Notes: generated from the sequence alone by a model not told the origin. A stretch of 64,000 nucleotides of DNA from Gemmatimonadota bacterium (GCA_003222085.1 QHUK01000010.1:3688-67687); one strand, 5' to 3'; counted from the first letter of the stretch, positions 8,085 through 38,957 are shown. Numbers and translations are program-made.

Positions 8085-8166
8085 GTCATCCGTCGACCGT
8101 CATCTGTCGTCCGTGGGACCGAGAGCAGGGGAAGACACGGATGACGGATGACTGAAGACGGATGAC
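8085..8166. repeat. Long imperfect hairpin built from heptamer arrays (CATCCGT x4 / ACGGATG x4)
   Basis: The left arm is gtcatccgtcgaccgtcatctgtcgtccgtg (8085-8115). The right arm is cacggatgacggatgactgaagacggatgac (8136-8166). The loop is 20 nt. The element exactly fills the gap between the convergent OCD-like and PiT genes. Confidence 0.75.
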
Positions 8167-8169
8167 GTT

Positions 8170-11325: not shown

Positions 11326-11396
11326 ACGGCCCCCTTGCCGGTCTTCTGGAGGGGTGTGATATTGAGCTTCGGACCCGAACAAATACCGAAGCCACC

Positions 11397-11542: not shown

Positions 11543-11645
11543 CACGACGCCACGACGCCACGACGCTACGACGGACAGTCAACGCCGGGACCGCGGCAAC
11601 TCGCGCTACCCCTTGCCGTCGTGACGTCGTCACGTCGTTGCGTCG
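11543..11645. repeat. Long imperfect hairpin built from octamer arrays (CACGACGC x3-4 / inverted)
   Basis: The left arm is cacgacgccacgacgccacgacgctacgacgg (11543-11574). The right arm is ccgtcgtgacgtcgtcacgtcgttgcgtcg (11616-11645). The loop is about 41 nt. The element starts 6 nt after the zinc-ribbon ORF stop. Confidence 0.7.
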
Positions 11646-14893: not shown

Positions 14894-15039
14894 TAGAAGT
14901 TGAAATATATCAATAGCTTACCATCGAAGTAACGGGCCTTGCGATGTCCTTGATCTTCGGGATATATTCGGGTCCCATTTACTACCCGACAATGCCAAAA
15001 ACTCCCCACCTGACGAGCGAGTCCGCGGCTTGCTGTTGG

Positions 15040-16284
15040 ATGCCGCTGTTCGCGTTGCGCTCCGAACTGGCGCGGCGGCCCGAACTCGCGTCCCACCCCG
15101 TGGCGCTCGTCGCACCCGACACCGCTCGCACCCCTCGGGTGTGGCAGGTCGTGCCGCTCGCCCGGCACGCCGGGGTGAAGCCGGGAATGACGGTCAGCCA
15201 GGCGATCGGACTCTGTCCCGCGCTCAAGCTGTGCGAGCCCGACCCGGTGCATTACGACGAGCAGTTCGAGCAGCTCATCGCTGCACTTGCCGTGGTAAGC
15301 CCCGTCGTGGAGCCGGTGGAGTTGGGGCGGGTGTTCGTGGGCACCGACGGATTGGAAGGGCTGTACGGAGGGCCGGAGGAGATCGTCGAGGCGATCAAAC
15401 GCGGAACGCGGAAGTGGGAACGCGGAACAGGCGAGCGATCTTCCAGCCCCTGTTCCGCGTTCCGCGTTCCGCGTTTCGCGTTTCGGGTGGGCTGGGGCCG
15501 CGGGAAATTCGTTTCCTGGGTGGCCGCGACCCGCGCAAAACCCGGAGCTGCGGTCATAGTGCCGGTGGGAGGGGAGGCGAAGTTTCTCGCTTCCCAGCCG
15601 CTCGCCGTGCTCCCGCTCGACCCCGACACACATCGCCGGCTGCAGCAGCTCGGCGTCAAGACGCTGGGCGCGCTCGTCGCGCTTCCGGAGGAAGCCGTCG
15701 TGTCGCAATTCGGTGGCCCGGGCCGGCGGCTGTGGCGGCTCGCGGCGGGACTCGTGTCGGAGCCGGTGGTGGGACGGGTCGTGCCCGAGCCGATCGTGGC
15801 CGCTCTCACGTTTTTCACCCCGGTCGGCGAGCGGGACCTGCTCGCCCACGCACTGGACAAGCTCGTCGACCGCGCGCTCGGAGATCCGCGTCGCAGCGGC
15901 TGGCGCGTGCAGGTCGTCCGGGTGCGCGCCGAGCTCGAGCACGGCGCCTCCTGGCTCGTCACCGCGACCCTCAAAGACCCATCCGCGACGCGGGAGCACA
16001 TCGCGGCACCGCTCAAGACGCAGCTCGAGCGGTCGCCGCCCGTCGGTGCGGTCGAGCGGCTCGTCGTCGAGTTTACCGCCTTCGCTCCCGGCACCGCCGA
16101 GCTGCAGCTGTTCGCGCATGATGCGAGCGCCGCGGCTCGCGCCGGGCGACGGCGTGCGCTCCAAGGCGCCGCCCGGGAGATCGCGCTCCGAATCAGACGG
16201 CCGATGCTGTATCACGTCATCGAGGTGCAGCCATGGTCCCGCCTTCCCGAGCGGCGGTACGCGCTGATCGACTATGAACCGTGA
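15040..16284 (+). CDS. imuB: ImuB-like Y-family DNA polymerase homolog (mutasome subunit)
   Basis: 'MPLFALRSELARRPELASHPVALV...ARHAGVKPGMTVSQA' is the typical ImuB N-terminus, and the gene lies directly upstream of dnaE2. The ATG at 15040 is chosen over the listed 14944 start. There is a possible clamp-binding 'LQLF'. Confidence 0.8.
   Translation: MPLFALRSELARRPELASHPVALVAPDTARTPRVWQVVPLARHAGVKPGMTVSQAIGLCPALKLCEPDPVHYDEQFEQLIAALAVVSPVVEPVELGRVFVGTDGLEGLYGGPEEIVEAIKRGTRKWERGTGERSSSPCSAFRVPRFAFRVGWGRGKFVSWVAATRAKPGAAVIVPVGGEAKFLASQPLAVLPLDPDTHRRLQQLGVKTLGALVALPEEAVVSQFGGPGRRLWRLAAGLVSEPVVGRVVPEPIVAALTFFTPVGERDLLAHALDKLVDRALGDPRRSGWRVQVVRVRAELEHGASWLVTATLKDPSATREHIAAPLKTQLERSPPVGAVERLVVEFTAFAPGTAELQLFAHDASAAARAGRRRALQGAAREIALRIRRPMLYHVIEVQPWSRLPERRYALIDYEP
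15397..15486. repeat. GGAACGC-type heptamer hairpin element inside imuB
   Basis: The left arm is ggaacgc ggaagtg ggaacgc ggaacag. The loop is 17 nt. The right arm is cctgttcc gcgttcc gcgttcc gcgtttc gcgtttc. The ORF stays open and reads KRGTRKWERGTGERSSSPCSAFRVPRFAFRV. Confidence 0.8.
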
Positions 16285-16582
16285 ACAAACGCGGAAGTTG
16301 GAGCGCGGAACGCGGAACAATGCGGACAGGCTTCGGGCGCTCAACGTTCAGCAGCAGGTGAAGGTCGATCTGGATGACGGTGGAGTGCCGGTAGTCGTGA
16401 CACGGGAAACGGGAGATGGGAAACGTGTTGAGTCGATCGGTGAGACGTGGCGGATCGATGATGAATGGTGGCGATTGCCTATTGTGCGGCGATATGTGGA
16501 AGTGATTCTCGAAGGTGGCGGGCGGGTTGTGTTGTTCGAAGATCTGTCGACGGGCGAGTGGTGGATCCAGAAGCCCGCCTGA
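16274..16582 (+). CDS. Small ORF between imuB and dnaE2 with a 'WRIDDEWWR' motif (possibly a DUF6504-like ImuB-associated domain)
   Basis: The 102 aa ORF ends '...GETWRIDDEWWRLPIVRRYVEVILEGGGRVVLFEDLSTGEWWIQ'. It overlaps the imuB stop in the +1 frame. Its first ~20 codons are repeat-derived, so the true start is uncertain. The family assignment is from memory. Confidence 0.55.
   Translation: MNREQTRKLERGTRNNADRLRALNVQQQVKVDLDDGGVPVVVTRETGDGKRVESIGETWRIDDEWWRLPIVRRYVEVILEGGGRVVLFEDLSTGEWWIQKPA
16287..16320. repeat. GGAACGC-type heptamer array (left arm of a split pair)
   Basis: The sequence is aaacgc ggaagtt ggagcgc ggaacgc ggaacaa. It lies immediately after the imuB stop. Confidence 0.75.
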
Positions 16583-16617
16583 ACGTTCCGCGTTCCGACT
16601 TCCGCGTTCCAACTTCC
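16583..16617. repeat. GGAACGC-type heptamer array, inverted (right arm of a split pair)
   Basis: The sequence is acgttcc gcgttcc gacttcc gcgttcc aacttcc. Its reverse complement, ggaagtt ggaacgc ggaagtc ggaacgc ggaacgt, matches the 16287-16320 arm. It fills the whole spacer between the small ORF stop and the dnaE2 ATG. Confidence 0.75.
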
Positions 16618-19600
16618 ATGTACGTCGAGCTCCACTGCCACTCCGCTTTCTCGTTCCTCGACGGCGCCTCGCTCCCCGAGCAGCTCGCGCTCACCGCGTC
16701 GCAGCTCGGCTACCCCGCGCTCGCGCTCACCGACCACAACGGCCTGTACGGCTCGATGGCGTTCGCGCAAGAAGCGAAACAGCTCGGCATCCAGGCGATC
16801 ACCGGCGCGGAGCTGACCCTACTCGACGGCTCTCACGTGACGATTCTCGCGGAGACGCCTGAGGGGTACGCGAACCTCTGCCGGTTGATTACGGAGGCTC
16901 ATCTCGGTCGTGAAGACCGGCGCGACCCGCGGCTCGATTTCGCCTCGCTCGAAGCCCGGCACGCAGGGCTCATCGTGCTGTCGGGATGCCGCAACGGGCT
17001 GCTCCCTCAGGTGCTGCGGCGCGACGGCCCGGCCGCTGTCCGTCGCGTCGCCGAGCGGTGTCGTGCGGTGTTCGGGAAGGACAACTTTGTCGTCGAGCTG
17101 CAGCGCAATTATGTACGGGGCGATCTGGCCCTGACCCGGGCGCTGAAAGCCCTCGCGGACGACGCGCAGCTGGGCGTCGTGGCGTCGGGCAACGTGCATT
17201 ATCACGCCCGCCCGCGTCACCGTCTGCACGACGTGCTGGTGGCGATCCGGCACCGCACCACGCTCGACGGCTCGCACGACGTGCGGCATGCGAACAGCGA
17301 GTTCTTCCTGCGCCCGCACGAAGAGGTCGAGGCGCTGTTTCGTGACTGTCCGAATGCTGTCGCTAATACTCTAGCCCTGGCGGAGCGCTGCCGGGGGTTC
17401 GATCTCACGCGGGATCTGGGATATCGGTTTCCCGATTTCAACGGCGCCGAGCGCGCCCCCGCCCCGCGAGCGCTCGCCGAGCTGTGCCGGGCGAGACTGG
17501 AAGAGCGCTACCCTCCGGATTCCCCCCACCGCGACGCCGCGGAGCGGCGGCTCGCCGAGGAGCTGCGGCTGGTCGAGCACCATGCGCTCTCGGGGTTCTT
17601 TCTCGTCTATCACGACCTGTTCGACCTGGCCCGGGAAGTCGCCGTCGACGTGCGGCGCGGCTCGCGGCGGGCGCAGGGCGGCCTGCTCCCCGGTCGCGGT
17701 CGCGGCTCATCGGTCTCCTCCGTCGTGTGCTACCTGCTCGGCCTCTCGCACATCGACCCGGTCGCGACCCGGCTGTTCATCGGGCGGTTCCTGAGCGAGA
17801 CCCTCGCCTCGGTGCCGGACATCGACCTCGATTTCCCGCGCGAGATCCGCGAGGAGCTGATCCGGCGGGTGTACAAGCGGTACGGCGACGAGCACGTCGG
17901 GCTCGTCTGCTCGTTCCCCACCTATCGCCTGCGCTCGACGGTGCGGGAGATCGGCAAGGCGCTCGATCTGCCGCCGGGCGAGATCGAGCAGGTCGCGAAA
18001 CTGGCGGACCGGCGATCCGGCGGACTGGCGGACGAATTGGACCAGCTTCCCGGATTCGCGGGGCGACGGAGCGCGCCGCTCTGGAAAGAGCTGTGCGAGC
18101 TCGCCGAGGAGATCGCGGGGCTGCCGCGGCACATTTCCCAGCACGTGGGCGGGATGGTCATCTCGAGCCGGCCGCTCGTGGAGATCGTGCCGCTCGAGCG
18201 CGCCGCCATGGAAGACCGGGTGGTATGCCAGTGGGACAAGGATGCCTGCGACGACGCACGCTTCATCAAGATCGACTTCCTGGCGCTCGGCATGCTGTCG
18301 CTCGTGGAAGAGTGTGTCGAGCGGATCGCCGTGCACCAGGGAGCGCCACCCGACCTCTCGCGCATCGACTTCGAGGACCCCGCGGTGTACGACCGCATCT
18401 GCCGGGGCGACACGGTTGGACTGTTCCAGATCGAGAGCCGGGCGCAGATCCAGATGATCCGTCGCACCCGACCCACCAACCTCGAAGACCTGGCGGTCGA
18501 GGTCGCGATCGTGCGGCCCGGCCCGATCGTGGGAGGAGCGGTGAACCCGTACGTGCGACGCCGCGAGGAGCAGCGCCGCGCCCGGGCCGCCGGTCGCGCC
18601 TACGAGCCGCCGCTCGAGCATCCCCTGCTCAAGGAAGCGCTCGACGAAACGCTCGGCGTGATCCTCTATCAGGACCAGGTGCTGCAGGTGTGCCAGGCGC
18701 TCGCCGGATTCACGGCGGGCCAGGCCGAGGCCTTGCGGCGGGCGATGAGCCGGCGGCGCAGCCGCGAGTTGATGGCGGGGTTCTGGGAGGAGTTCAAGGA
18801 GGGCGCGGCGGCGCGCGGCGTCCCCGAGCAGACAGCAGAGCGCGTGTTCACACAGGTGATCGCGTTCTCGGAGTTCGGTTTCCCCAAGTCGCACGCCGCG
18901 GCGTTCGGCCTGCTCGCCTACCAGTCGGCGTGGCTCAGGCATTATCACCCGGCCGAGTACTATTGCGCCCTCTTCAACAACCAGCCGATGGGGTTCTACT
19001 CGCTCGACGCGCTGGGACGCGATGCCCAGCGGAACGGCGTCGAGATCCGGCTGCCGGATGTGAATCTGAGTGACGTATGGAGCACGATAGAGCGGGAAAG
19101 GGGAAACGGGAAACGGGAAACGGGAGGCGTTCGGATCGGGCTTGGGTTCGTGCGCGACTGGAGCGAGGAGACGGCGACGGCGGTCGTGATCGAGCGCGAG
19201 CGGCGCGGGCCGTACGCGAGTATCGGCGACTTCGTGCGCCGGGCGCCGCCCAAGCTCAAGCGCACCGCGATCGAGCATCTCGTGTGGGTGGGAGGATGCG
19301 ACGGCTTCGGGCTCACCCGGCGCGAGCTCCTGTGGCAGGTGGGGCTGTGGCTGCCTCCGGAATCGGAGCACGGGGTGGACGCGCGCGCACGGCGGCAGCT
19401 CGAGCTGGCGCTCAATCATCCCCACGAGGGACTCCGATTCGGCGGCCTCGAGGCGGCCGAGCGGCTGCTCGCGGAGTATGACGTCCTGGGGTTCGCCGCG
19501 AGCGGCCATCCGCTCTCGCTGCTCCGCGGGGCGCTGCCGCCGGGTATCGTGCAGAGCGACACGCTCCCCCGGCTCGAGCACGGAGCGTGGGTCGAAGTCG

Positions 19601-19953
19601 CCGGGCTGGTGGTCGCGCGCCAGCGACCCGAGACGGCGAAGGGATTCATATTTGTGCTGGTCGAGGATGAGGCGGGGATGGTGAACGTGATCGTGCGGCC
19701 CGACGTGTACGAGCGCTATCGCACCGCGGTCCGCGGCGAGCCGCTCTTGTGGGTGCGCGGTAAGCTCGCCAAGGACGACGGGACGGTGAACGTGATCGCG
19801 GAAGAGGCGAGGGGGCTCAAAGTCGGAACGTGGAACGCGGAAGGCGGAACGGACGGCGGGCCTGCCAGTTCCGCGTTCCCACTTCCGCATTCCGCGTTCG
19901 ACTTTCTTAAGTCCATGCGTCGCCTCGCGCCGGAGTCCAAGGATTGGGGGTAG
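16618..19953 (+). CDS. dnaE2: Error-prone DNA polymerase III alpha-like subunit DnaE2
   Basis: It has the PHP-domain N-terminus 'MYVELHCHSAFSFLDGASLPEQL...LALTDHNGLYG', a length of about 1111 aa, and sits in an imuB-dnaE2 arrangement. Confidence 0.9.
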   Translation: MYVELHCHSAFSFLDGASLPEQLALTASQLGYPALALTDHNGLYGSMAFAQEAKQLGIQAITGAELTLLDGSHVTILAETPEGYANLCRLITEAHLGREDRRDPRLDFASLEARHAGLIVLSGCRNGLLPQVLRRDGPAAVRRVAERCRAVFGKDNFVVELQRNYVRGDLALTRALKALADDAQLGVVASGNVHYHARPRHRLHDVLVAIRHRTTLDGSHDVRHANSEFFLRPHEEVEALFRDCPNAVANTLALAERCRGFDLTRDLGYRFPDFNGAERAPAPRALAELCRARLEERYPPDSPHRDAAERRLAEELRLVEHHALSGFFLVYHDLFDLAREVAVDVRRGSRRAQGGLLPGRGRGSSVSSVVCYLLGLSHIDPVATRLFIGRFLSETLASVPDIDLDFPREIREELIRRVYKRYGDEHVGLVCSFPTYRLRSTVREIGKALDLPPGEIEQVAKLADRRSGGLADELDQLPGFAGRRSAPLWKELCELAEEIAGLPRHISQHVGGMVISSRPLVEIVPLERAAMEDRVVCQWDKDACDDARFIKIDFLALGMLSLVEECVERIAVHQGAPPDLSRIDFEDPAVYDRICRGDTVGLFQIESRAQIQMIRRTRPTNLEDLAVEVAIVRPGPIVGGAVNPYVRRREEQRRARAAGRAYEPPLEHPLLKEALDETLGVILYQDQVLQVCQALAGFTAGQAEALRRAMSRRRSRELMAGFWEEFKEGAAARGVPEQTAERVFTQVIAFSEFGFPKSHAAAFGLLAYQSAWLRHYHPAEYYCALFNNQPMGFYSLDALGRDAQRNGVEIRLPDVNLSDVWSTIERERGNGKRETGGVRIGLGFVRDWSEETATAVVIERERRGPYASIGDFVRRAPPKLKRTAIEHLVWVGGCDGFGLTRRELLWQVGLWLPPESEHGVDARARRQLELALNHPHEGLRFGGLEAAERLLAEYDVLGFAASGHPLSLLRGALPPGIVQSDTLPRLEHGAWVEVAGLVVARQRPETAKGFIFVLVEDEAGMVNVIVRPDVYERYRTAVRGEPLLWVRGKLAKDDGTVNVIAEEARGLKVGTWNAEGGTDGGPASSAFPLPHSAFDFLKSMRRLAPESKDWG
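19094..19128. repeat. GGGAAAC heptamer tandem array inside dnaE2
   Basis: The array is gggaaag gggaaac gggaaac gggaaac gggaggc, translated as ERERGNGKRETGG. A related array, gggaaac gggagat gggaaac, occurs at 16404-16424 in the small ORF. Confidence 0.7.
19825..19899. repeat. GGAACGC-type heptamer hairpin element in the dnaE2 3' coding region
   Basis: The left arm is ggaacgt ggaacgc ggaaggc ggaacgg. The loop is 15 nt. The right arm is gttcc gcgttcc cacttcc gcattcc gcgttc. It shares a 21-nt identical stretch (gttccgcgttcccacttccgc) with the reverse complement of the imuB element arm. Confidence 0.8.
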
Positions 19954-19958
19954 CGGCA

Positions 19959-19986
19959 TTGACATCGTCACGGCGCCGGATAGCCT
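19959..19986 (+). promoter_or_regulatory. Candidate sigma70-type promoter giving a leaderless transcript
   Basis: The layout is TTGACA (19959-19964), 16 nt, then TAGCCT (19981-19986). The ATG of the downstream gene lies 6 nt after the -10 element. Confidence 0.35.
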
Positions 19987-19992
19987 TGCTCC

Positions 19993-21057
19993 ATGCCGAT
20001 CCCCACCGAACCCATTGGCAGCATCCCCAGACCCCCGGAGCTCGTCGCGGGGATGCAGCAGCTCGCCACCGGTCGCCTCACGCGCGACCAGTTCGCCCGA
20101 CTCCAGGACGCGGCGATCCACGACACCATCCGGCGGTTCGAAGCGACCGAGTCCCCCGTCATCACCGACGGTGAGCAGGCGAAACCCAGCTTCGCCACCT
20201 ACCCGATCCACGGGCTCACGAACCTCGCACCCGACGGCGTCACGATCCCGTTCGCCGACGGACACACGCGGCAGCTCCCCCGGCTCACCGCCGGGCCGTT
20301 CCGCTATCAGACGTACGCCGACGCATATCTCGCGAGCGCGCGAGCGCACGCCCACGTGCCCGTCAAACAGGCGGTGATCGCGGCCTCGGCGCTCAGCCTG
20401 CTCTATCCGGAGGACGGCATCACAGGGTATCCGCGCGAAGCGTTTCTCAAGGATCTCGTGCGCGAGGCGGAGACGGACATCCGCCGGTGTCTCGCGAAGG
20501 GTGCCCACGTGGTGCAGCTCGATTTCACCGAAGGCCGGCTCGCGGTGAAGTTCGATCCATCGCTGGGCCTGCTCAGGATGTTCGTGGACCTGAACAATCA
20601 GGTACTCGAGCGCTTCACGGCCGACGAGCGCCGCAGGATCGGCGTTCACACCTGTCCGGGCGGCGACCGGGACTCGACGCACAGCGCGGACGTGGACTAC
20701 GCGGAGCTCCTGCCCACGCTGTTTGAGCTGAAGGCGACGAACTTCTACATCCAGTGCGCGAGTGAGCCGGACCGCGGCAGGGTGCTGCGCCTCATGAAGG
20801 AGCACAGCAAGCCCGGCCAGCGGATTTTCGTCGGCGTGATCGATCCGATCGATCCACGGGTTGAGACGCCCGACGAAGTCCGGGACCGGGTCCTGGAGGC
20901 GGCGGAGTACATCGCGCTCGACCGGCTCGGCACCACCGACGACTGCGGCTTCGCGCCCTTCGGCGACGACACCTCCACCGACCGCGAGACGGCATTCGCC
21001 AAGATCCGCGCACGCGTGGCCGGCACCGCGCTGGCGGCCCGGGCGCTGCGGGCGTGA
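19993..21057 (+). CDS. Cobalamin-independent methionine synthase (MetE C-terminal-like) family protein
   Basis: At 354 aa, '[14 protein letters not shown]' and '...[14 protein letters not shown]...[13 protein letters not shown]' are typical of the COG0620/methionine synthase II family. Confidence 0.7.
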
Positions 21058-21112
21058 TCACGCCTTGCCGCTCAGGCTAACTTTCGCAAGAACGCGGAAA
21101 GGGGATGTGCGG

Positions 21113-21661
21113 ATGCCGCAACGCGAAGTGGCAACCCTCGCCGGCGGGTGCTTCTGGTGTCTGGAAGCCGCCTTCCAGGACTTGAAGGGTGTCGAGAAGG
21201 TTCAGTCGGGCTACGCCGGGGGGCGCGTGGCGAACCCGTCGTACGAGGACGTCTGCACCGGCACCACGGGCCACGCCGAGGTCGTGCAGATCACCTTCGA
21301 CCCCACCGTCGTGTCGTTCAACGACCTGCTCCACATCTTTTTCACGATTCACGATCCGACCACGCTCAACCGCCAGGGCGGGGACGTGGGCACCCAGTAC
21401 CGCTCGGCCGTCTTCTACCACACCCCGGAGCAGAAGACCGTGACGGAGCAGGTCATCAGGGAGCTCGAGGCGGAGCACATCTGGGACGATCCGATCGTGA
21501 CCGAGGTGAAGCCGCTCGAGGCCTTCTATCCGGCCGAGGAGTACCACCGCGACTACTATCGCCGCAACCCGAACCAGGGCTACTGCCGCGCGGTGATCGC
21601 GCCCAAAGTGGCCAAGGTCCGCAAGCTCTATTTCGACAGGCTGAAGCAATCGGCGAATTGA
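21113..21661 (+). CDS. msrA: Peptide-methionine (S)-S-oxide reductase
   Basis: It has the active-site motif '[15 protein letters not shown]' and '[12 protein letters not shown]'. The ATG at 21113 is preceded by AAAGGGGA. Confidence 0.9.
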
Positions 21662-21670
21662 GGAGACACG

Positions 21671-22105
21671 ATGCGCTGGTCGATATTTGCGCTGCTTGTC
21701 GCGGCGCCGGTGTTGGCGGCGGCCCAGGCGCCGCCCGCCGGCGCGAGTGAGCCGTTCGTGGTGGAGTATTACTACAAGACCCGCTGGGGCTTCGCCGACG
21801 AGTTCATCCGGCTCTTCAAGAAGAACCACTTCCCGGTATTGAAGCGCGAGATCGAGCTGGGGCACATCCAGCGGGTCACCGCGGAGGCACCGAGGTTCCA
21901 CGGGACCGAGGAGGGCCGCTGGGACTATCGCATAACGATCGTGTGGAAGAACGCCGCCGCACCGCACGAGCCGTTCCCCGAGGCGGAGCTCAAGCGCCTG
22001 TTTCCTGACCAGGACACGTTTCGGCGCGAAGAGCAGCGGCGTTTCGAAATCCTCGCCGCGCACTGGGACCTGCCGGTGGTCAGCGTGGATCTGACGCGGC
22101 CGTAA
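21671..22105 (+). CDS. Hypothetical secreted protein
   Basis: It has the signal peptide '[20 protein letters not shown]' and no recognisable family. Its 3' end overlaps the convergent lhr by 26 nt. Confidence 0.5.
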
Positions 22106-25100
22106 AGGCGGGCCGGCTCTTTCCGAGATACGTCCGCACGAGCGGAGCCACGCGCCCGCGCACCAGAGCGGACTTGAGCCGCTCCCGTTCATCCGGCGCG
22201 ACCTCCACCAGGTACCGCTCGCCGCTCCCAGCTCCCTCCTTGATCGCGACGGGGATCCCGTCTCGATACAGGATCCGGTTCGTCGCAACCCCGGCGAGCA
22301 CGTCTCCCGGCGTCACGATCCCTACCAGGTTGAGCGGGTCGGCCCCGCTCACGGCCACCAGCTCCCCGCGGGGCTCCTCGCGCCGCACGCGGCGGAGCAA
22401 CCCCACGGCTTCCGGCAGGGCGTATTGCTCGCCCGAGAACCCGCCCACGAAGCGCCCGCCGCGAATCTCGCCGCGCGCCTCGAGCCGGCGGTACACCCGC
22501 AGGATGTCGCGCCACGGCGTGAGCAATGTCTCGCGCGTCACCAGCCGACGGAACACCACCCCGTAGCGGCGCAGCAGCTGCCACGCGACCGCTTCCGCGA
22601 CGGCCTCTTCCTGGAGCGGCGCTGCCAGGCGCCGCACCCGCGACCATCGCCCCGCCGTCTCGACCCCGAACGGCGCTACACGCCCCCGTCGCCGGAACCC
22701 GCCCCCCCCGATAGGGCGGCGCCGGTCGGACGGCACGAGCAGCGCTCGCAGCCCGGCGAAGCTGTCCGAGGTCACCAGCCCCCACGCGACCAGCTCCCCG
22801 AGTCCCTTCTCGACTTCGGTGCGTAACAGTCCGGTCGCGTTCGTGAGGTCGCCAAAGAACGACGCGCCGCGCTCGTCGAGCGCCTCGAGCACGGCCCGGG
22901 CCGAGTGTGACAGTGACAGGTGCGCTGGATCGGCCTGCACCGTGAGGGACTGCCAGACCACTCCCCGCTCCCTGCGAAACAGCGCAATCGGCGTGGTGCG
23001 AATCGGCCCGGCTTTGTGACCCCCCCCGTTCGACGGCGCCGCCGGCGACAACCGGCCCCAGGCGATCTCCCCGGACAGGCACAGGCCGTCGAGCCACAGA
23101 GGGTCGTAGTCGCCGAGCCGCGCGGGGAGCACGTCCGCCTCCCAGGCCGCCGCCGGCGCCTCGTATCCGTCGAGCAGCTCGAGCACTGCACCAAGCCCGT
23201 CCGGCCCCTCGGCCCGGGCATCGGGTGCGGCGCGCTGCCACTCGAGCAGGAACCGCATGAAGTCCGCCGCGGTGACCGGCTCGATTTCCTGGCGCAGCCG
23301 GTCGAGCGTGTAGCGGTGGATGCGGGCGAGCAGGCGCCGCTCGCACCATTCGAGCTCCACGACGCCGGGAGTGAACCGGCCGCGCAGCACGAAGCCCTCG
23401 TGCTCGAGCGCGCCGAGCGCGAAGTCCACGTCCCCGGCCGGGACGCCCAGCGATCGTGCGATGTCGGCGGCCGTCGTGGGACCGACCGCCTCGAGCCGGC
23501 CGCGCACCAGCTCGCGCACCGCATCCTCGCGCGTCCATACCTTGGCCCGATCTCGTTCCGGCACCACCAGCGGCGGCTCGCACCGAGCTCCCGGGAACAC
23601 CGCCTCCAGCATCGGCAGCCGCTCGGCGGCCACGCACAGGTGCGGGTCGTGCGACAGCATCCCCGCTCGTCCAGCTCTCGCCAGCTCCTCGAAATACCCT
23701 TGCTGTTCCGCGTTCCGCGTTCCGACTTCCGCGTTGGGAATGGCGCCCATCACGAGCAACGCATCGTGCAGCTCGTCGGCGCTCGCGACCTCCGGCCACG
23801 CCTCCTCCTTCACCCGATCAATCGCCGCCTGATCGAGCTTGCCCAGCTCCTCGGCGGTCTTCACGTCAAGGCCGCGCCGTGTGATCACGGCCTGAGTGCG
23901 GCGCTCCTCGAGCGGCGCGTCGTCGAGGAAGGCGTAGGGCTTGGCATTGATCACCTCGTGGGCGAGCGGCGACGGCTCCGTCGTGTCGCGCGCCACGAGC
24001 GTGAACTGTCCCGCCGCCATCCCCTCGAGCACGCCCTTCAGACCCGGGAAGTCCATCGCTTCCAGCAGACAGTCCGCGATGGTCTGCTGCACCAGCGGAT
24101 GGTCGGGAATCTCCCGGTCCCCCACGAGGTTCTCGGGGCACGCGAGCTGGTCGGGGAACACGGCGGCCACCAGGTCCTCCGCGTCCATGCGCTGGAGCGG
24201 CGTGGGCACCTTCTTCCCGCCTCGCGCGCGCAGCACGGCGAGCGCCCGCGTCGCGTTCCAGCGCCAGCGCGAGCCGAACATCGGCGCGTCCAGCATCGCC
24301 TGCACCAGCAGGTGCTCCGCCGTCTCGGGCTTCAGATACTGGAACACGTCCTCGAGCGGGAAGCTGTGCTGGGGCCCGAGCGACAGGACGATCGCGTCCT
24401 CGGTGGCCGCGGCCTGGAGCTCGAAGTTGAAGCTGCGGCAGAACCGCTTGCGGAGCGCGAGTCCCCACGCGCGGTTCACCCGACTCCCGAACGGCGCGTG
24501 CAGCACCAGCTGCATCCCCCCCGCCTCGTCGAAGAAGCGCTCCAACACGAGCGTCTCCTGGGTCGGGGTGACCCCGAGGATCCTCTTCGAGGCCTCGAGA
24601 TACTCGACCATCTGCCGGGCCGCGGCCTCGGGGACGCCCGGGATCTCGCGCGCGAGCCACGTATTCGCCTCGCGGACGTCACCTAGCCGGGCGTCGACGT
24701 CCCGGCGCAGGCGAGACACCTCTTGCGATAGCTCCGGCGTGCGACCCGGCGCCTCCCCCAGCCAGAACGGGATCGACGGGGGCTGGCCCTGGGCGTCCAC
24801 GACGCGCACCTGGCCCGACTCGATCCTCTCGATCCGATACGATCGGTTGCCCAGCTGGAAGATGTCGCCGGGCATGCTCTCGATGGCGAAATCCTCGTTG
24901 AGCGTTCCGACGAAGGTCTCTGTCGGCTCGAGGATAACGCGGTAGTCGCCGATGTCCGGAATCGCCCCGCCCGACGTGAGCGCGGCGAGTCGGGCGCCGC
25001 GCCGCGCGCGCAGCCGGCGATTCACGCCATCGTAGTGGACGTAGGCGCCGCGCCGCCCGCGCCGCGTCGTGAATCCGTCGGCGAGCATCTGCACCACGGC

Positions 25101-26456
25101 GTCGAAGTCCTTGCGCGACACGTCGCGATACGGGTACGCCCCGCGCACCAAGTCGAACAGGCCGTCCTCCTGCCACTCCTCGCACGCCACCGCGGCCACG
25201 ATCTGCTGCGCCAGGATGTCGAGCGGGTGCGCCGGGATGATCAAGCGGTCGAGGCGGCGCTCCCGTGCGGCCCGCACCAGCGCGGCGCACTCGATCAGCT
25301 CGTCGCGCGACAACGGGAACAGCCGGCCCTTGGGAACGGCGGCGAGATGGTGTCCCGAGCGACCTACGCGCTGCAACAGCGTCGCGATCGAGCGGGTCGA
25401 GCCGATCTGACACACCAAGTCCACCGCACCGATGTCGATCCCTAGCTCGAGCGACGCCGTCGCGACCAGCGCCTTGAGCTTTCCCTCCTTGAGCCTGGTC
25501 TCCGCGTCGAGGCGCTTTTCCTTGGAGAGGCTGCCGTGGTGCGACGTCACTTGATCCGCGCCCAGCCGCTCGGAGAGATGCAGCGTCAACCGCTCCGCCA
25601 GCCGGCGCGTGTTCACGAACACCAGCGTGGTGCGATGCTCGAGGATCAGCTGGACCAGGCGCTCGTAGATCTCCTCCCACACCTCGGCCGCCATGACCGC
25701 CTCGAGCGGCGAGGAGGGAATCTCGATCGCCAGGTCGAGCGTGCGGGCGTGGCCGGAGTCGATCACGCTCGGGGCTTGGGACTCGGGGCTGGGGGCTCGT
25801 TTGGTGCCCACCAGAAACTGGGCGATGTCCTCGATGGGCTTCTGCGTCGCCGAGAGCCCGATGCGCTGGAGACGCCGCCCGGCGAGGTGCTCGAGCCGTT
25901 CGAGCGACAGCGCCAGGTGGCTCCCCCGCTTGTCGCGCGCCACGGCGTGGATCTCGTCCACGATCACGGTGCGCACGCCGCGCAGCATCTCGCGGGCGCG
26001 CTCGGACGTGAGGATGAGATAGAGAGACTCGGGCGTGGTGACGAGGATGTGCGGGGGCCGCCGCACCATCTCCTGGCGCTCCGCGCCCGGCGTGTCGCCG
26101 GTCCGCACCAGCGTGCGGATCTCCACATCCGGCAGGCACGATGCTTCCAGCGTGCGGCGGATCTCGGCAAGGGGCTCTGCCAGGTTCTTCTGAACGTCGT
26201 TCGAGAGCGCTTTGAGCGGCGAGACGTACACGACCTGCGTGCCGTCGGTGAGGGTGCCGTCGAGGCCCTGACGCAGCAGTGAATCGATGGCGGCGAGAAA
26301 GGCCGCGAACGTCTTACCGGAGCCGGTGGGCGCGGCGATCAGGGCGTTCCGGCCCGCCTGGATGAGTGGCCACGCGCGCCGCTGTGGCTCGGTGGGCTCG
26401 CGGAATCGCGACCCAAACCAGCGCTCGATGACGGGGTGAAAGCCAGACAACGACAT
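22080..26456 (-). CDS. lhr: Lhr-family ATP-dependent helicase (large DEAD/DEAH-box)
   Basis: It has '[39 protein letters not shown]', 'VIVDEIHA', '[10 protein letters not shown]', and the long C-terminal Lhr extension. The start MSLSGFHPV at 26456 is chosen. Confidence 0.9.
23703..23735. repeat. Solo GGAACGC-type heptamer array inside lhr
   Basis: The array is ctgttcc gcgttcc gcgttcc gacttcc gcgtt. No partner arm lies within about 100 nt. On the minus strand it is translated as [14 protein letters not shown]. Confidence 0.7.
25771..25798. repeat. GGGGCTN heptamer array inside lhr
   Basis: The array is ggggctt gggactc ggggctg ggggctc, translated on the minus strand as ...[11 protein letters not shown]... 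Confidence 0.5.
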
Positions 26457-26475
26457 ACTCAAATATGGCGAAGAT

Positions 26476-27672
26476 TTACCGAAGCAGCGACACCCCTCGC
26501 GCCGCGGCGATCCGCTCGACCGTCTCCCCAATCTTGTTGTTCGGGGTCGACGCGCCCGCGGTCACTCCCACGGTCAGGGGCCCCGCAGGGAGCCACCCGC
26601 TCACGCGCCGCTCCTGCGTGGCCCCCGGAGGGCGGAACCGGATCGTCCCGGCCTCCGGGTCGATGCAGCTCGCATCCTCGATGTGATAGGTCGGCGCCTT
26701 GTCGTGGCAAATGGCGGCGAGGTGCGTCGTGTTGCTCGAGTTGTATCCCCCGATCACGACCATGAGGTCGAGCGGCTCGGCGATGAGCTTCAGCACTGCA
26801 TCCTGACGGTCCTGCGTGGCCGAGCAGATCGTGTCGAACGTGCGGAAGTGCTCGGGCAGCGCGGCCTCACCGTACCGCTGCGCCATGCTCCGCCGGATCT
26901 CGGCCGCGATGGCGAGCGATTCCCCGGAGAGCATCGTGGTCTGATTGGCGACGCCCACGCGGACGAGGTCGCGATCGGGATCGAACCCGGGCGACAACTT
27001 GTCCGCAAAGAGCTCAAGGAACCGCTCCCCGCTCCCCGCTCCCTCGATGTAGGCGCAGACTTCACGCGCTTCCGCCATGTCGCGCACGACGAGGTACTTC
27101 CCGCCCGGGTATTTGGTGACTTGGCTCGAGGTGGCCTTTGTCTCCTCGTGGTAGTACTTGCCGTGGACGACGGCGGTGAACCCGTCCTTCGCGTAGGAGT
27201 CGACGCGCTTCCAGACGTTGAGCACCGATCCGCACGTCGTGTCCACGAGGACGCATCCGACCGCGCGCAGCCGCTCGAAGTCCTTCACGGTGACCCCGAA
27301 GGCCGGAAGAATGACGACGTCCGCGGGGGTGATCCCGCGGAAGTCGAACTCACCTTCGTCCGGCCGGTGCAGGAACTCGACCCCCATGCTCTGCAGCTTC
27401 TTGTTGACGTGCGGATTGTGGATGATTTCGCCGACCAGGAACACCCGCCGCTCGGGGAACTTGGTGCGGGTTTCGTAGGCGTATTCGACGGCGCGGTCCA
27501 CTCCGTAGCAGAACCCGAACTCGCGGGCGAGTTTGAACGTGAGGTCGCCCATCGTGAGGACGTAACCCTGGGCGCGAATGCGATCCACCACGCGGCTGTG
27601 ATAGTCCGCCGTGAGCGCACCCTCGATGTCGCTCTTGAGGCCGAAGCCGCGTCGAAAGTAGGTCTGCTCCAC
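26476..27672 (-). CDS. ispH: 4-hydroxy-3-methylbut-2-enyl diphosphate reductase (long form)
   Basis: It has '[13 protein letters not shown]', 'HNPHVN', '[14 protein letters not shown]' and '[12 protein letters not shown]'. Confidence 0.9.
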
Positions 27673-35886: not shown

Positions 35887-37335
35887 GTGCGGACACTCGC
35901 GGTCCTGGGAGTAGCGCTCGCGTGCGGGACCTCCGGCCTCGGTGCGCAGCGCGCGCACGAGTTCGAGTTCGGCGCGTTCGGATCGTTCACACGCTACGAC
36001 AGAGCCTTCAACCTCGACAACCGGATGGGCGGCGGCGGCCGGCTGGGCTATTTCTTCAGTAACGTCGTCAGCGCGGAGCTCGACGGGGGATATCAGAGCC
36101 CCAATCCGAAGACGGGCAGCGCCTCCCCCACACTCGCCCACGGCAGCGCGAGCCTGGTGCTGAATTTCGGCACCGCCCGCAACCTCTTCTATCTGCTCGG
36201 CGGCTATTCCCGGCTCGACTTCGAGAAGACGGCGCCATACCGCTTCACCGACGACGCCGTCCACGGCGCGATCGGCGACCGCATCTTTCTGGGCGACCGA
36301 GCCGCCCTGCGCCTCGAGGTGCGTGGCGTGTACGCGCCCAGCACGGGATTCGCCGGCGGCGACTGGGCGGGGCACGTCGTCGGCTCCCTCGGCTTGTCCG
36401 TCTTCACCCGGGGCGGCCCGGCAGCGGACACGGACACGGACCACGACGGGGTTCCCGACCAGCGGGATGTGTGCCCCGACACGCCCCTCGGCGCAGCGAC
36501 GGACGCGCGCGGCTGCCCCACTGACTCCGACCACGACGGGGTGTACGACGGCCTCGACCGGTGCCCCGGCACGCCCGCGGGGGCACGCGTCGACTCCAGA
36601 GGCTGCCCCGCCGATGCCGACGGCGATGGCGTGCTCGACGGCCTCGACCAGTGCCCCAGCACACCCGCCGGCGCGAGCGTGGACGCCAAGGGCTGCCCCG
36701 CCGATGCCGACGGCGACGGCGTGCTCGACGGCCTCGACCAGTGTCCCAGCACGCCCGCCGGCGCGGTGGTCGACGCGGTCGGCTGCCCGCTCGACGCGGA
36801 CAAGGACGGCGTCCCGGACGGACTCGACAAGTGTCCCAACACGCCGCCCGGGGCGGAGGTGGACGACGTCGGCTGCCAGCGCTTCAAGGACTCGGACGGC
36901 GACGGCGTGGACGACACGAAGGACCGCTGCCCGGGCACGCCCACCGGCACGCGCGTGGACGCCGCCGGCTGCCCGATTCTGTTCACGCCGGAGCGGACGC
37001 CGGTCATCCTGCGCGGCGTGATCTTCGAGACCGGCAAGTCGGCGCTCAAGCCCGAGTCGTTCACGGTCCTGGATATCGTCGCCCAGTCGCTCAACGCCAA
37101 TCCGGACATCCGGATCGAAATTGCCGGCTACACCGACAACACCGGCTCGGACGCCACCAACCTCCGCCTGTCGCAGGCCCGGGCGGACGCGGTGCGCGCG
37201 TACCTCGGGAGCAAGGGAGTCGCGCCGGGCCGCATGGTGACGAAGGGGTACGGCGCGACGAAACCGATCGCCCCGAATACGACGGTCGCGGGGCGCGCGC
37301 AAAACCGGCGCGTCGAACTGCACCAATTACCTTGA
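35887..37335 (+). CDS. OmpA-family outer membrane protein with a beta-barrel N-domain and thrombospondin type-3 repeats
   Basis: It has a signal peptide and about 6 repeats of 'D.D.DGV.D..D.CP.TP.G..VD..GCP'. The C-terminal OmpA domain reads 'IEIAGYTDNTGSDATNLRLSQARADAVRAYL...NRRVEL'. The start is GTG. Confidence 0.85.
   Translation: MRTLAVLGVALACGTSGLGAQRAHEFEFGAFGSFTRYDRAFNLDNRMGGGGRLGYFFSNVVSAELDGGYQSPNPKTGSASPTLAHGSASLVLNFGTARNLFYLLGGYSRLDFEKTAPYRFTDDAVHGAIGDRIFLGDRAALRLEVRGVYAPSTGFAGGDWAGHVVGSLGLSVFTRGGPAADTDTDHDGVPDQRDVCPDTPLGAATDARGCPTDSDHDGVYDGLDRCPGTPAGARVDSRGCPADADGDGVLDGLDQCPSTPAGASVDAKGCPADADGDGVLDGLDQCPSTPAGAVVDAVGCPLDADKDGVPDGLDKCPNTPPGAEVDDVGCQRFKDSDGDGVDDTKDRCPGTPTGTRVDAAGCPILFTPERTPVILRGVIFETGKSALKPESFTVLDIVAQSLNANPDIRIEIAGYTDNTGSDATNLRLSQARADAVRAYLGSKGVAPGRMVTKGYGATKPIAPNTTVAGRAQNRRVELHQLP
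36427..36969 (+). repeat. 90-bp (30-codon) tandem repeats encoding TSP3 calcium-binding repeats
   Basis: There are six consecutive units. Units 3 and 4 (about 36601-36780) are nearly identical at nucleotide level over their first ~70 nt. Confidence 0.8.
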
Positions 37336-37358: not shown

Positions 37359-38957
37359 ATGAGACGGTTCGGGATGCTGGCGGCGGGGCTGGTGCTCGCC
37401 GCAGGACGCCTCGCAGCGCAGCACGCCGGGCAGGTCGAAGTCGGCGCGTTCGGCTCCTATACGCGTTACGACGCCACGTTCGGGCTCGCCCACAAGATCG
37501 GGGGCGGCGTCCGGCTGGGATACCTGCTGGGCAACATCGTCGGCGTGGAAGGCGACATCCTGTTTCAACCCGAGTACACCGTCTCACCGGGCGGCACGCC
37601 CACCACACTCGAGCCGTTGATCGGCAGCGCGTCCCTCGTGATCAACGCGGTGCATACGAGCCGACTCATGGTCTACGTGCTCGGCGGCTACTCGCTGCTC
37701 GACTTCGGCACGCGCGCGCCCTACAGCTTTACCGATAACGGCGCCCACGGCGGCGCCGGTATGCGCCTGTTCCTGACCGAGCGCATCGCGCTGCGCGCGG
37801 AGGGGCGGGCCATTTACAGCCCCAGCACCCGGTCGACGTTCGGCCCCAAGACGGCGACGCATTACGTTGCCACCGCGGGGCTCTCCGTGTTCCATCTGGG
37901 TACCCCGTCCAAGGATTCCGACCACGACGGCGTCCCCGACGCGAAGGACGCCTGCCCGGACACCCCCGCCGGAGCGGCCGTCGACTCGAAGGGTTGCCCC
38001 ATCGATTCCGACCATGACGGCGTGTACGATGGGATCGACAAGTGCCCCGGCACGCCGACGGGCGCGCACGTCGATGCGACGGGTTGCCCCACCGATAGCG
38101 ACGCCGACGGCGTCCCCGACGGGATCGATCAGTGCCCGGCCACGCCGGCGGGCGTGCACGTGGACGCGAAGGGCTGTCCGGTCGACTCCGATGGCGACGG
38201 CGTCCCCGATGGCGTCGACCAGTGTCCCAATACGCCCGCGGGCGTAACGGTCGACGCGGCCGGCTGCCCGCTGGACTCGGACAAGGATGGCGTCCCCGAC
38301 GGCATCGACAAGTGCCCCAACACGCCGGCCGGAGCCACGGTGGACGCGAGCGGGTGCCCGCTGGACGCGGACCTCGATGGCGTACCGGATGGGCTCGACC
38401 AATGTCCCAACACGCCGGCGGGCACCAAGGTAGATGCGGCAGGCTGCCCGCTGCCCGTCGGAGCGGTCAAGGCACCGGCGGCGGCGCCGCTCCCCACCCC
38501 CACCCCGCCCGGCAAGTGCCCGCCCACCCCGCCGGGGAGTCAGGTGGATGCGAACGGCTGTCTCATTCTGTTCACGCCCGAGGCCGCGCGGTCTGCGACG
38601 CCGGGTGCGCCGCCACGGCCCACGCTGATTCTGACCGGTGTGAACTTCGAGACCGGCCGGTCGGCCCTGACGCGCGACTCCTACATGGTGCTCGACGCGG
38701 TCGCGGCCTCGCTGCTCGCGAACCCGGACATCCGGATCGAGATCGCCGGATACACCGACAGTACCGGCACGAAATTCATGAACCTCCGGCTGTCGCAGGG
38801 GCGCGCCGCCGCCGTGCGCTTCTACCTCGCGCGCAAGGGCGTCGCGCCTGCCCGTATGGTTGCCAAGGGGTACGGCGCGTCGGGCTACATCGCGCCCAAC
38901 AGGACCGCGGCCGGGCGCGCGCAGAACCGTCGGGTGGAGCTGCACAAGCTGCCGTAG
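37359..38957 (+). CDS. OmpA-family outer membrane protein with TSP3 repeats (tandem paralog)
   Basis: It has the same architecture as the upstream gene. The signal peptide is 'MRRFGMLAAGLVLAAGRLAAQ'. It has about 6-7 TSP3 units and the OmpA domain 'IEIAGYTDSTGTKFMNLRLSQGRAAAVRFYL'. Confidence 0.85.
   Translation: MRRFGMLAAGLVLAAGRLAAQHAGQVEVGAFGSYTRYDATFGLAHKIGGGVRLGYLLGNIVGVEGDILFQPEYTVSPGGTPTTLEPLIGSASLVINAVHTSRLMVYVLGGYSLLDFGTRAPYSFTDNGAHGGAGMRLFLTERIALRAEGRAIYSPSTRSTFGPKTATHYVATAGLSVFHLGTPSKDSDHDGVPDAKDACPDTPAGAAVDSKGCPIDSDHDGVYDGIDKCPGTPTGAHVDATGCPTDSDADGVPDGIDQCPATPAGVHVDAKGCPVDSDGDGVPDGVDQCPNTPAGVTVDAAGCPLDSDKDGVPDGIDKCPNTPAGATVDASGCPLDADLDGVPDGLDQCPNTPAGTKVDAAGCPLPVGAVKAPAAAPLPTPTPPGKCPPTPPGSQVDANGCLILFTPEAARSATPGAPPRPTLILTGVNFETGRSALTRDSYMVLDAVAASLLANPDIRIEIAGYTDSTGTKFMNLRLSQGRAAAVRFYLARKGVAPARMVAKGYGASGYIAPNRTAAGRAQNRRVELHKLP
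37914..38444 (+). repeat. 90-bp tandem repeats encoding TSP3 repeats
   Basis: There are six consecutive 'CP.DSD.DGVPDG.D.CP.TPAG..VDA.G' units. Confidence 0.8.

Follow-up and report, generated by a model that had tools for sequence, protein, structure and literature searches.

A 64-kb window of genomic DNA from a Gemmatimonadota bacterium (GCA_003222085.1, QHUK01000010.1:3688-67687; hereafter "the window," with positions counted from its first letter) carries tandem arrays of a GGAACGC-type heptanucleotide in or against imuB (an imuB-like Y-family polymerase gene), dnaE2 (an error-prone DnaE-type polymerase), the small gene orfX that lies between them, and lhr (the large helicase-related protein). 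Targeting of repair genes by a repeat would have amounted to a remarkable mechanism, whether of regulation or of mutation. We consider it probable, however, that these arrays are a local colony of a widespread class of heptad repeats, one that spread by local copying and persists by being tolerated rather than by targeting.

Specifically, the module is ~35 nt long and built of four to five heptads (GGA-NN-GC), in each of which a GCGGA core stays constant while two bases vary; it occurs singly or in inverted pairs predicted to form very stable hairpins, and would belong to a broad, cross-phylum class of heptanucleotide tandem repeats. Modules entered the ImuB surface loop, the two junctions, the DnaE2 C-terminal tail and the Lhr inter-domain linkers in an ancestor of this Gemmatimonadales clade, and have since been inherited vertically, with whole arms replaced in concert. 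New copies would come from a neighbouring arm by ectopic gene conversion or template switching—events that the proximity of the sites would favour—and would persist since their hosts are large, linker-rich and presumably rarely expressed (i.e., repressed outside the damage response), such that in-frame hairpins may cost little. Any effects on expression (slowed ribosomes, RNase III substrates, REP-like protection of upstream mRNA) would be a by-product.

Heptad arrays in the window and their inheritance

Scanned with the regular expression (GGAA[CG]NN){3,}, the window gave matches only at 15403-15430(+)/15450-15470(-), 16583-16617(-), 19825-19852(+)/19866-19886/19906(-) and 23703-23730(-). Tandem Repeats Finder (TRF; period 7, 3.9-4.7 copies) and an inverted-repeat finder, run as cross-checks, agreed with the regular expression on arrays and pairings. 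In total there are seven arms, which occupy five places; each lies in or against imuB, orfX, dnaE2 or lhr, and the rest of the 64 kb has none. Three of the five places fall within coding sequence. This is the distribution that a first-pass annotation of the window had claimed, i.e., arrays confined to imuB, its 3' junction, the dnaE2 5' junction and 3' end, and lhr. Lone GGAACGC words occur at chance level (26 observed vs. 19.9 expected), so it is only the tandem arrays that stand out.

Within imuB, an in-frame 5' arm on the + strand (15397-15431; AAACGC, GGAACGC, GGAAGTG, GGAACGC and GGAACAG in succession) is followed, after a 17-nt loop, by a (GCGTTCC)n 3' arm (15449-15483, +) that is 89% complementary to it, and the predicted RNA fold of 15390-15492 has a free energy of -67.1 kcal/mol (z = -6.4). 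A second inverted pair encloses orfX: the arm at the imuB stop and orfX start (16288-16320, +) and its complementary partner between the orfX stop and the dnaE2 ATG at 16618 (16583-16617, +) lie 270 nt apart and pair across orfX in the minimum free energy fold of 16265-16640, in which the 3' arm adjoins the dnaE2 AUG. The third pair sits in the final 45 codons of dnaE2, where an in-frame 5' arm in the C-terminal tail (19824-19852, +) and its 3' arm (19866-19906, +) are predicted to fold at -50.8 kcal/mol (z = -4.4). Finally, lhr carries a single arm at amino acid (aa) ~936, between DEAD_assoc and WH3 (23702-23732, - strand, with the GGA strand in mRNA sense), that has neither a partner nor structure beyond that of shuffled sequence (z = +0.9). 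Host-protein arrays fall at Pfam domain edges or between domains. Rfam 15 yielded no match at gathering score anywhere in the window, and no intrinsic terminators were called at the hairpins.

Comparison with Gemmatimonadales relatives (83 syntenic loci retrieved; denominators vary by site), which the first-pass annotation had proposed, found the sites filled in ~80 relatives and distant ImuBs without the insert. Arrays occupy the imuB loop in 82/84 loci, the imuB/orfX junction in 68/84, the orfX/dnaE2 junction in 61/72, the dnaE2 tail in 27/27 and the lhr aa ~936 site in 17/17, while the nine genes in the 10 kb upstream of imuB are almost array-free. ImuB homologues at 80-98% identity differ almost exclusively in the insert, and a few lack it. 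The peptides encoded there are not conserved—GTRNAER, GMRNAEC, GVRSAEC and RIGNEK/SAIRNPQ are translations of (GGAACGC)n, (GGAATGC)n, (GGAGTGC)n and (GGATTGC)n, respectively—and the units switch among these four across relatives, with both hairpin arms changing together. Units can also differ among the sites of one genome, e.g., in the closest relative (L004) the imuB unit is GGAACGC, whereas the dnaE2 tail and lhr have GGAATGC/GGAGTGC, and L002 and L026 likewise mix units among their imuB, dnaE2 and lhr sites. In 20 distinct 93-nt imuB inserts, 87.7% of cells are paired, compared with 32-51% when the partner is slid, and 10 of the 35 pairs are altered on both sides among 20 distinct relatives. 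All imuB inserts recovered (~78/84 loci) are in frame, i.e., multiples of 3, with quantised lengths of 42 to 141 nt vs. 39 nt at the empty site; dnaE2 tails are in frame in every variant seen.

In distant ImuBs (34-58% identity) the site holds just a short loop, which indicates that the insert arose within the clade, at a presumably permissive loop. This loop appears to be a recurrent landing site. One ImuB homologue (P0129; identity 58% in its N-terminal part and 43% across the full alignment) has an independent and unrelated long insert at the same loop, with heptad-like coding (GKRETGS...PSAFPP). Two relatives, L044 (7897-7986) and L073 (8800-8886), lack the imuB insert but have at its site a 6-bp palindrome, GGCGGA-cctt-TCCGCC. 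Each of its arms shows the heptad's invariant core, and the palindrome may be what the hairpin grew from or what is left of it.

As for how new copies arise, we infer copy-and-overwrite from a neighbouring arm, of which one case is directly observed. The glycine-rich linker at lhr aa ~1168, which contains a poly-G run of variable length, has no arm in the window or in 11 other lineages but has one in L048/L054, L056 and L077, where it overwrites ~40 nt of resident sequence for a net, in-frame gain of 6-12 nt. In L048 and L077, the lineages in which both sites are covered, this arm and the imuB/orfX arm have the same distinctive third unit, GGAAGGC, and the imuB/orfX arm lies 8 kb away in the opposite orientation. 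A single layout, (A)AACGC, three heptads and then GGAACAG, is common to all arms. Copying and overwriting between neighbours would account both for the single unit type in adjacent genes and for the concerted replacement of whole arms. The poly-G run, which encodes SNG(G)nHK (window ~23000-23060; lhr aa ~1160-1175), itself varies by three-base steps across L002-L063.

Distribution beyond the clade and likeness to known repeats

A scan of one genome per species for three consecutive GGARYGC units returned at least 120 genome tiles from more than ten phyla, including Acidobacteriota, Verrucomicrobiota, Planctomycetota, Chloroflexota, Gemmatimonadota, Nitrospirota and others among the matches listed, and a separate scan of IMG/VR viral contigs returned 85 stretches, which suggests that phage or prophage DNA is colonised too. 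Because base composition could by itself give 17 matches in the genome scan at 50% GC, and up to ~140 if all genomes had 65% GC, the bare count is weak evidence. Among the matches listed, however, arms outside the clade have a median length of 36 nt where 21 nt was demanded, and 61/141 have an inverted partner; these lengths, the 41 inverted pairs and the other heptamer units that co-occur in the tiles show that the census matches are real arrays. By crude gene calling 70/141 arms lie in coding sequence, and arms typically hold four GCGGA cores.

The genes that host these arms elsewhere are functionally diverse. Among the matches listed, none of the 205 tiles (1.7 Mb of other genomes and phage contigs) contains imuB, lhr or orfX, and the sole dnaE2-type match is a weak one, merely a PHP-domain gene (L094). 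The 20 mid-gene hosts identified comprise ValRS, two class-III aminotransferases, two histidine kinases, a molybdopterin oxidoreductase, a DUF11 protein, MTHFR, HflX, an RluD-like synthase, a TPR protein, MutL, HypF, a DUF4129 protein, a MutS-domain protein, GT87, Mfd, a HEAT/cytochrome c protein, HrpB and CheR. Within other Gemmatimonadota (nine tiles), modules occur at the YceG-RuvX and Dtd-GlmS junctions, at the N-termini of MurG and ZIP, in HflX, after AcrB, after a chlorite dismutase-Rieske gene, and between NrfD and LemA genes. Thus copies are dispersed over unrelated loci in other Gemmatimonadota and other phyla and clustered in the 64-kb source window. The first-pass annotation had held that copies scattered at random with respect to gene function would count against a link to repair genes; with diverse hosts and no imuB or lhr among them, the census speaks against targeting as far as other genomes go.

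Unpaired arms in coding sequence, among the matches listed, show no strand bias (sense 20, antisense 18), which argues against a sequence-specific RNA role, and such a function for single arms was dropped. Around hairpins in other phyla no conserved outer termini or target-site duplications were seen, and nothing recurrent was found among the open reading frames (ORFs) that arms bracket in the tiles. Two class-III aminotransferases, L089 3952-5457 (from a Pedosphaera bin) and L148 3420-4907 (from a "Bifidobacteriaceae" bin), carry an array at the same residue (~104), which reflects either an old common insertion or a mis-binned contig.

Heptanucleotide repeats are not new to bacteria: Mazel reportedly described the STRR sequences of heterocystous cyanobacteria in 1990, and Mrazek is said to have treated heptameric simple sequence repeats in general in 2007. 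The first-pass annotation had likened the present arrays to STRRs, and their period and copy number by TRF support the comparison, as do their few-copy tandem make-up, the dispersed copies in other Gemmatimonadota and other phyla, and the several unit types per genome. They differ in that they occur in GC-rich Gemmatimonadales and are built on a GGA-NN-GC (GCGGA-core) unit rather than the cyanobacterial CCCCAGT, TTGGTCA or CAACAGT, and in having ~4-5 units, a strict inverted-pair polarity and frequent in-frame residence in protein-coding genes. It was also suspected at first pass that the kind had not obviously been described for such a lineage; in keeping with this, searches of the literature with the unit strings turned up nothing but matches to primers, and a 2025 survey of short tandem repeats makes no mention of heptanucleotides.

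Heptamers are the over-represented class of long simple sequence repeats in bacteria (PMC4692102, PMC4679880). The GGGAATC repeats of Xanthomonas and GGGGAYT repeats of Nostoc (Rehm et al. 2015, PMC4692102) are alike in being G-rich heptamers with fixed and variable positions, mostly in four units with some inverted pairs, and in occupying the same intergenic sites in related species while varying in length and sequence. Those repeats, however, are intergenic and proposed to form G-quadruplexes (PMC4692102), whereas the arrays described here lack G-runs, are predicted to pair into duplex hairpins and are found in coding sequence and at operon junctions. REP/REPIN elements (Bertels and Rainey 2011, PMC3116915) share the ~35-nt module size, the division into singlets and inverted hairpin doublets of fixed polarity, the intercistronic habit and evolution as a family within a genome (PMC3116915). 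In contrast to these, the single arm is not palindromic here (as in lhr) and consists of tandem heptads, many copies are intragenic, and spread looks like overwriting rather than insertion. No RAYT-type transposase was seen beside the arms, although the genomes were not searched for RAYTs.

In-frame residence recalls the Rickettsia palindromic elements, which reportedly (as Ogata and colleagues are said to have described in 2000) measure 100-150 bp, are not tandem heptads and occur in Rickettsia only: these too are hairpin repeats lying in frame in genes at tolerated sites, where they add unrelated peptide segments, but they have no sequence relation to the present arrays. Eukaryotic Foldback transposons have kilobase inverted arms that consist of short tandem repeats and flank a variable loop, in some cases with an ORF in it. 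The general plan is alike, an ORF in the loop included, but the arms here are 35 nt long, the host is bacterial and there is no evidence of transposition. Judged by their sequence features, then, the elements are STRR-like in make-up, REP/REPIN-like in size, pairing and intercistronic habit, and like Rickettsia palindromic elements in their in-frame residence, while lacking defining traits of every one of these families.

One property of the arrays is directional. Among the matches listed, the G-rich array forms the 5' arm, on both strands, in 41/41 inverted GGARYGC pairs across phyla, and the window's three GGAACGC-type pairs have the same polarity; for other heptamer units the G-rich arm is 5' in 25/32 pairs, and a window hairpin of another unit (8085-8167) is an exception. 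As duplex energy is equal either way, such polarity implies a directional mechanism or common descent. It would be expected if both 3' ends of a break were extended with the same unit and then joined, and it would also fit an enzyme that acts on single-stranded hairpins to copy the module. Together with the four- to five-unit arms, the loops of any sequence and the occurrence in several phyla and their phages, the polarity raises the possibility, which we rate as well short of likely, that GCGGA-core heptad hairpins constitute one undescribed cross-phylum family of templated or mobile repeats, the footprints of a specific DNA transaction. If that were true, the concentration of arrays in imuB, dnaE2 and lhr would carry meaning.

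Genomic setting and other short-unit arrays

The window has a G+C content of 69%, and its proteins find their nearest matches among proteins of Gemmatimonadales metagenome-assembled genomes. imuB (14944-16284, +; Pfam IMS, E = 4.8e-15) probably starts at 14992, as relatives begin at the residue equivalent to aa 17, and its upstream neighbour is a divergent DUF72 gene. dnaE2 (16618-19953, +) has Pfam PHP, DNA_pol3_alpha, finger, HHH_6 and OB domains, and its product scores 970.7 bits against NCBIfam NF004225, "error-prone DNA polymerase" (cut-off 939); imuB, orfX and dnaE2 form a cassette without imuA. Downstream of dnaE2 on the same strand lie a MetE-like gene, msrA and a 144-aa ORF, and on the opposite strand lhr (22080-26531, -; Pfam DEAD, Helicase_C, WH_Lhr, DEAD_assoc, WH3 and WH4; NCBIfam PRK09751).

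Upstream of imuB a promoter-like match (14939-14968) overlaps a TTCGGG-N5-TTCGGG direct repeat (14956-14972, +), which in turn overlaps the -10-like TATATT, is not a heptamer array, and is the sole perfect copy of its kind in the window; it is a candidate promoter/operator. The whole block, cTTGCg-N18-TATATT plus TTCGGG-N5-TTCGGG (14939-14972), is identical upstream of imuB in 14/14 relatives examined, and we regard it as a candidate promoter combined with a damage-response operator of the operon. A one-mismatch copy of the TTCGGG block stands at 11374-11390(-), upstream of a radical-SAM gene that adjoins the DUF72 gene. The GAAC-containing heptads had also been considered as LexA boxes, a reading that fails on place and geometry: the arrays lie in genes or between cistrons, and a separate block sits at the imuB -10.

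Between the two junction arms lies orfX (16358-16582, +; alternative ATG at 16274), a small lineage-specific gene that relatives annotate with 90 aa (L001 11301-11573; L002 11326-11598) within a size range of 74-102 aa. All 242 of its homologues are of Gemmatimonadales type, its third codon positions are twice as diverse as positions 1 and 2, and its G+C at third codon positions (0.64) compares with ~0.87 in neighbouring genes. An AlphaFold2 model of the product is all-beta (predicted local distance difference test score, 82.8), and searches of Pfam, NCBIfam and the PDB returned no match. On these sequence-derived features orfX is a real, lineage-specific coding gene, whose product may be an accessory protein of the mutasome. 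We dropped the idea that it is the transposase or cargo of an arm-bounded mobile element, given a real all-beta coding gene with no match in those databases. It contains a heptamer array of its own, of GGGAAAC type (16396-16423, +), the unit of which varies in relatives (GGGAAGC, GGGATGC).

Arrays of further units lie nearby. dnaE2 carries 4.7 copies of GGGAAAC in its HHH_6 region at aa ~831 (19091-19130, +; filled in 22/32 relatives, with varying units), and lhr carries a CCGCTCC-type array in its C-terminal tail at aa ~1436 (22214-22237, -; in 20/23 relatives) and a GCTCGGG-type array at aa ~250, between the two RecA-like domains (25767-25799, -; in 10/10 relatives, as CGGGTGT in some). The hairpins elsewhere in the window, as the first-pass annotation had noted, use other units, namely intergenic ACGGATG heptads at 8085-8167 (predicted fold -53.8 kcal/mol, z = -7.1) and intergenic octamer CACGACGC units at 11543-11638. 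Of the window's 13 period-7 elements of any unit, 8 lie in the 11.6-kb stretch that runs from imuB to lhr (binomial P = 6e-4). Longer tandem repeats, of 90 and 180 nt, occur at 36471-36901 and 37914-38453 (up to 4.8 copies, 73-79% matches); they are rich in GAC/GGC codons, lie within large ORFs and resemble repeated Asp-rich protein modules.

Alternative explanations and implications

The main rival to local copying and tolerance is that the hairpins are regulatory elements of the mRNA, a post-transcriptional brake on a dangerous operon, in which the imuB and dnaE2 tail hairpins would slow ribosomes or attract RNase III and the stem enclosing orfX would occlude the sequence just 5' of the dnaE2 AUG. 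The great stability of the predicted stems, the pairing of the junction arms with the 3' arm abutting the start codon, the retention of pairing through changes on both sides and the near-complete occupancy of the imuB and dnaE2 tail sites are all consistent with such a brake. Yet like hairpins occur in housekeeping genes and at many operon junctions of other taxa, the lhr aa ~936 arm has neither partner nor structure, and the imuB/orfX and orfX/dnaE2 arms are absent in 16/84 and 11/72 relatives, respectively. In addition, the changes on both sides come mostly from a few lineages, and correction templated by the hairpin would yield them too. We therefore consider a brake unlikely, if the strongest of the competing accounts.

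The first-pass annotation had offered three explanations, i.e., chance, a tendency of the repeats to insert into SOS genes or DNA under repair, and a cis-regulatory factor common to the three genes, none of which fits the data well. A preference for SOS genes, whose DNA would be single-stranded or heavily transcribed in the damage response, is suggested by the raised local density of arrays with several independent units in lhr and dnaE2, by the fresh lhr gain in one subclade, and by the presence of MutL, a MutS-like protein and Mfd among the mid-gene hosts elsewhere. It is set against the absence of imuB and lhr from the tiles listed, with a bare PHP-domain gene as the nearest thing to dnaE2, the functional diversity of the hosts, a non-significant excess of repair genes among them, the lack of an insert in distant ImuB homologues, and the lack of arrays in the window's SNF2-type and DEAD-type helicase genes. 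On balance such a preference seems quite improbable.

We find it more doubtful still that a single repeat-reading protein, whether bound to DNA or to RNA, coordinates imuB, dnaE2 and lhr through the arrays. A GCGGA core kept at a strict 7-nt period through all unit variants, and typically present four times per arm, is what such a protein might read; however, the units can vary within one genome from site to site across imuB, dnaE2 and lhr (as in L002, L004 and L026), which argues against one sequence-specific factor, and unpaired arms point about equally often in both directions. Moreover, the sites lie within coding sequence and not at promoters, the operon has its own conserved promoter/operator-like block upstream of imuB, and like arrays occur in unrelated genes of many phyla.

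Very little speaks for the arrays as contingency loci, in which slippage by one 7-nt unit would shift the frame and switch the mutasome or Lhr on and off. A 7-nt step does shift the frame, as seven does not divide by three, and repeats with a heptanucleotide unit are reported to drive phase variation in Haemophilus; but the arrays are short and interrupted, the dnaE2 tails stay in frame in all variants seen, and the recovered imuB inserts are in frame with quantised lengths and no frameshifted allele among them (consensus assemblies only), and phase variation was dropped. Chance co-occurrence of unrelated low-complexity sequence, for which only the chance-level frequency of lone GGAACGC words could be cited, deserves practically no credence and was ruled out, given the restriction of tandem arrays to five places, the clustering of period-7 elements and the maintenance of array sites across ~80 relatives.

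Several observations weigh against a tolerated colony spread by local copying. Retention is near-universal over 25% protein divergence with pairing preserved, such that selection for the structures is possible. The density of arrays between imuB and lhr is ~7x background (8 per 11.6 kb vs. roughly 1 per 10 kb), and because lhr and dnaE2 hold several different units, local copying of one family does not suffice to explain the whole of it. Repair proteins make up 3/20 mid-gene hosts, although this excess is non-significant (P = 0.075). The census draws on other genomes, while the source genome is seen as 64 kb only, with all its copies clustered, and tolerance through low expression is an assumption.

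If a common class of repeat has simply colonised this locality, annotation of imuB, dnaE2 and lhr should expect in-frame, repeat-encoded loops. An error-prone polymerase operon whose reading frames contain hairpins of -50 to -67 kcal/mol throughout the clade would also offer a natural system for effects on translation and mRNA decay, and the filled lhr linker provides direct evidence that a module can spread by overwriting resident sequence from a neighbouring copy. More broadly, the strict polarity of the arms points to a directional mechanism behind heptamer repeats, the over-representation of which in bacteria has been noted since 2007 without explanation.

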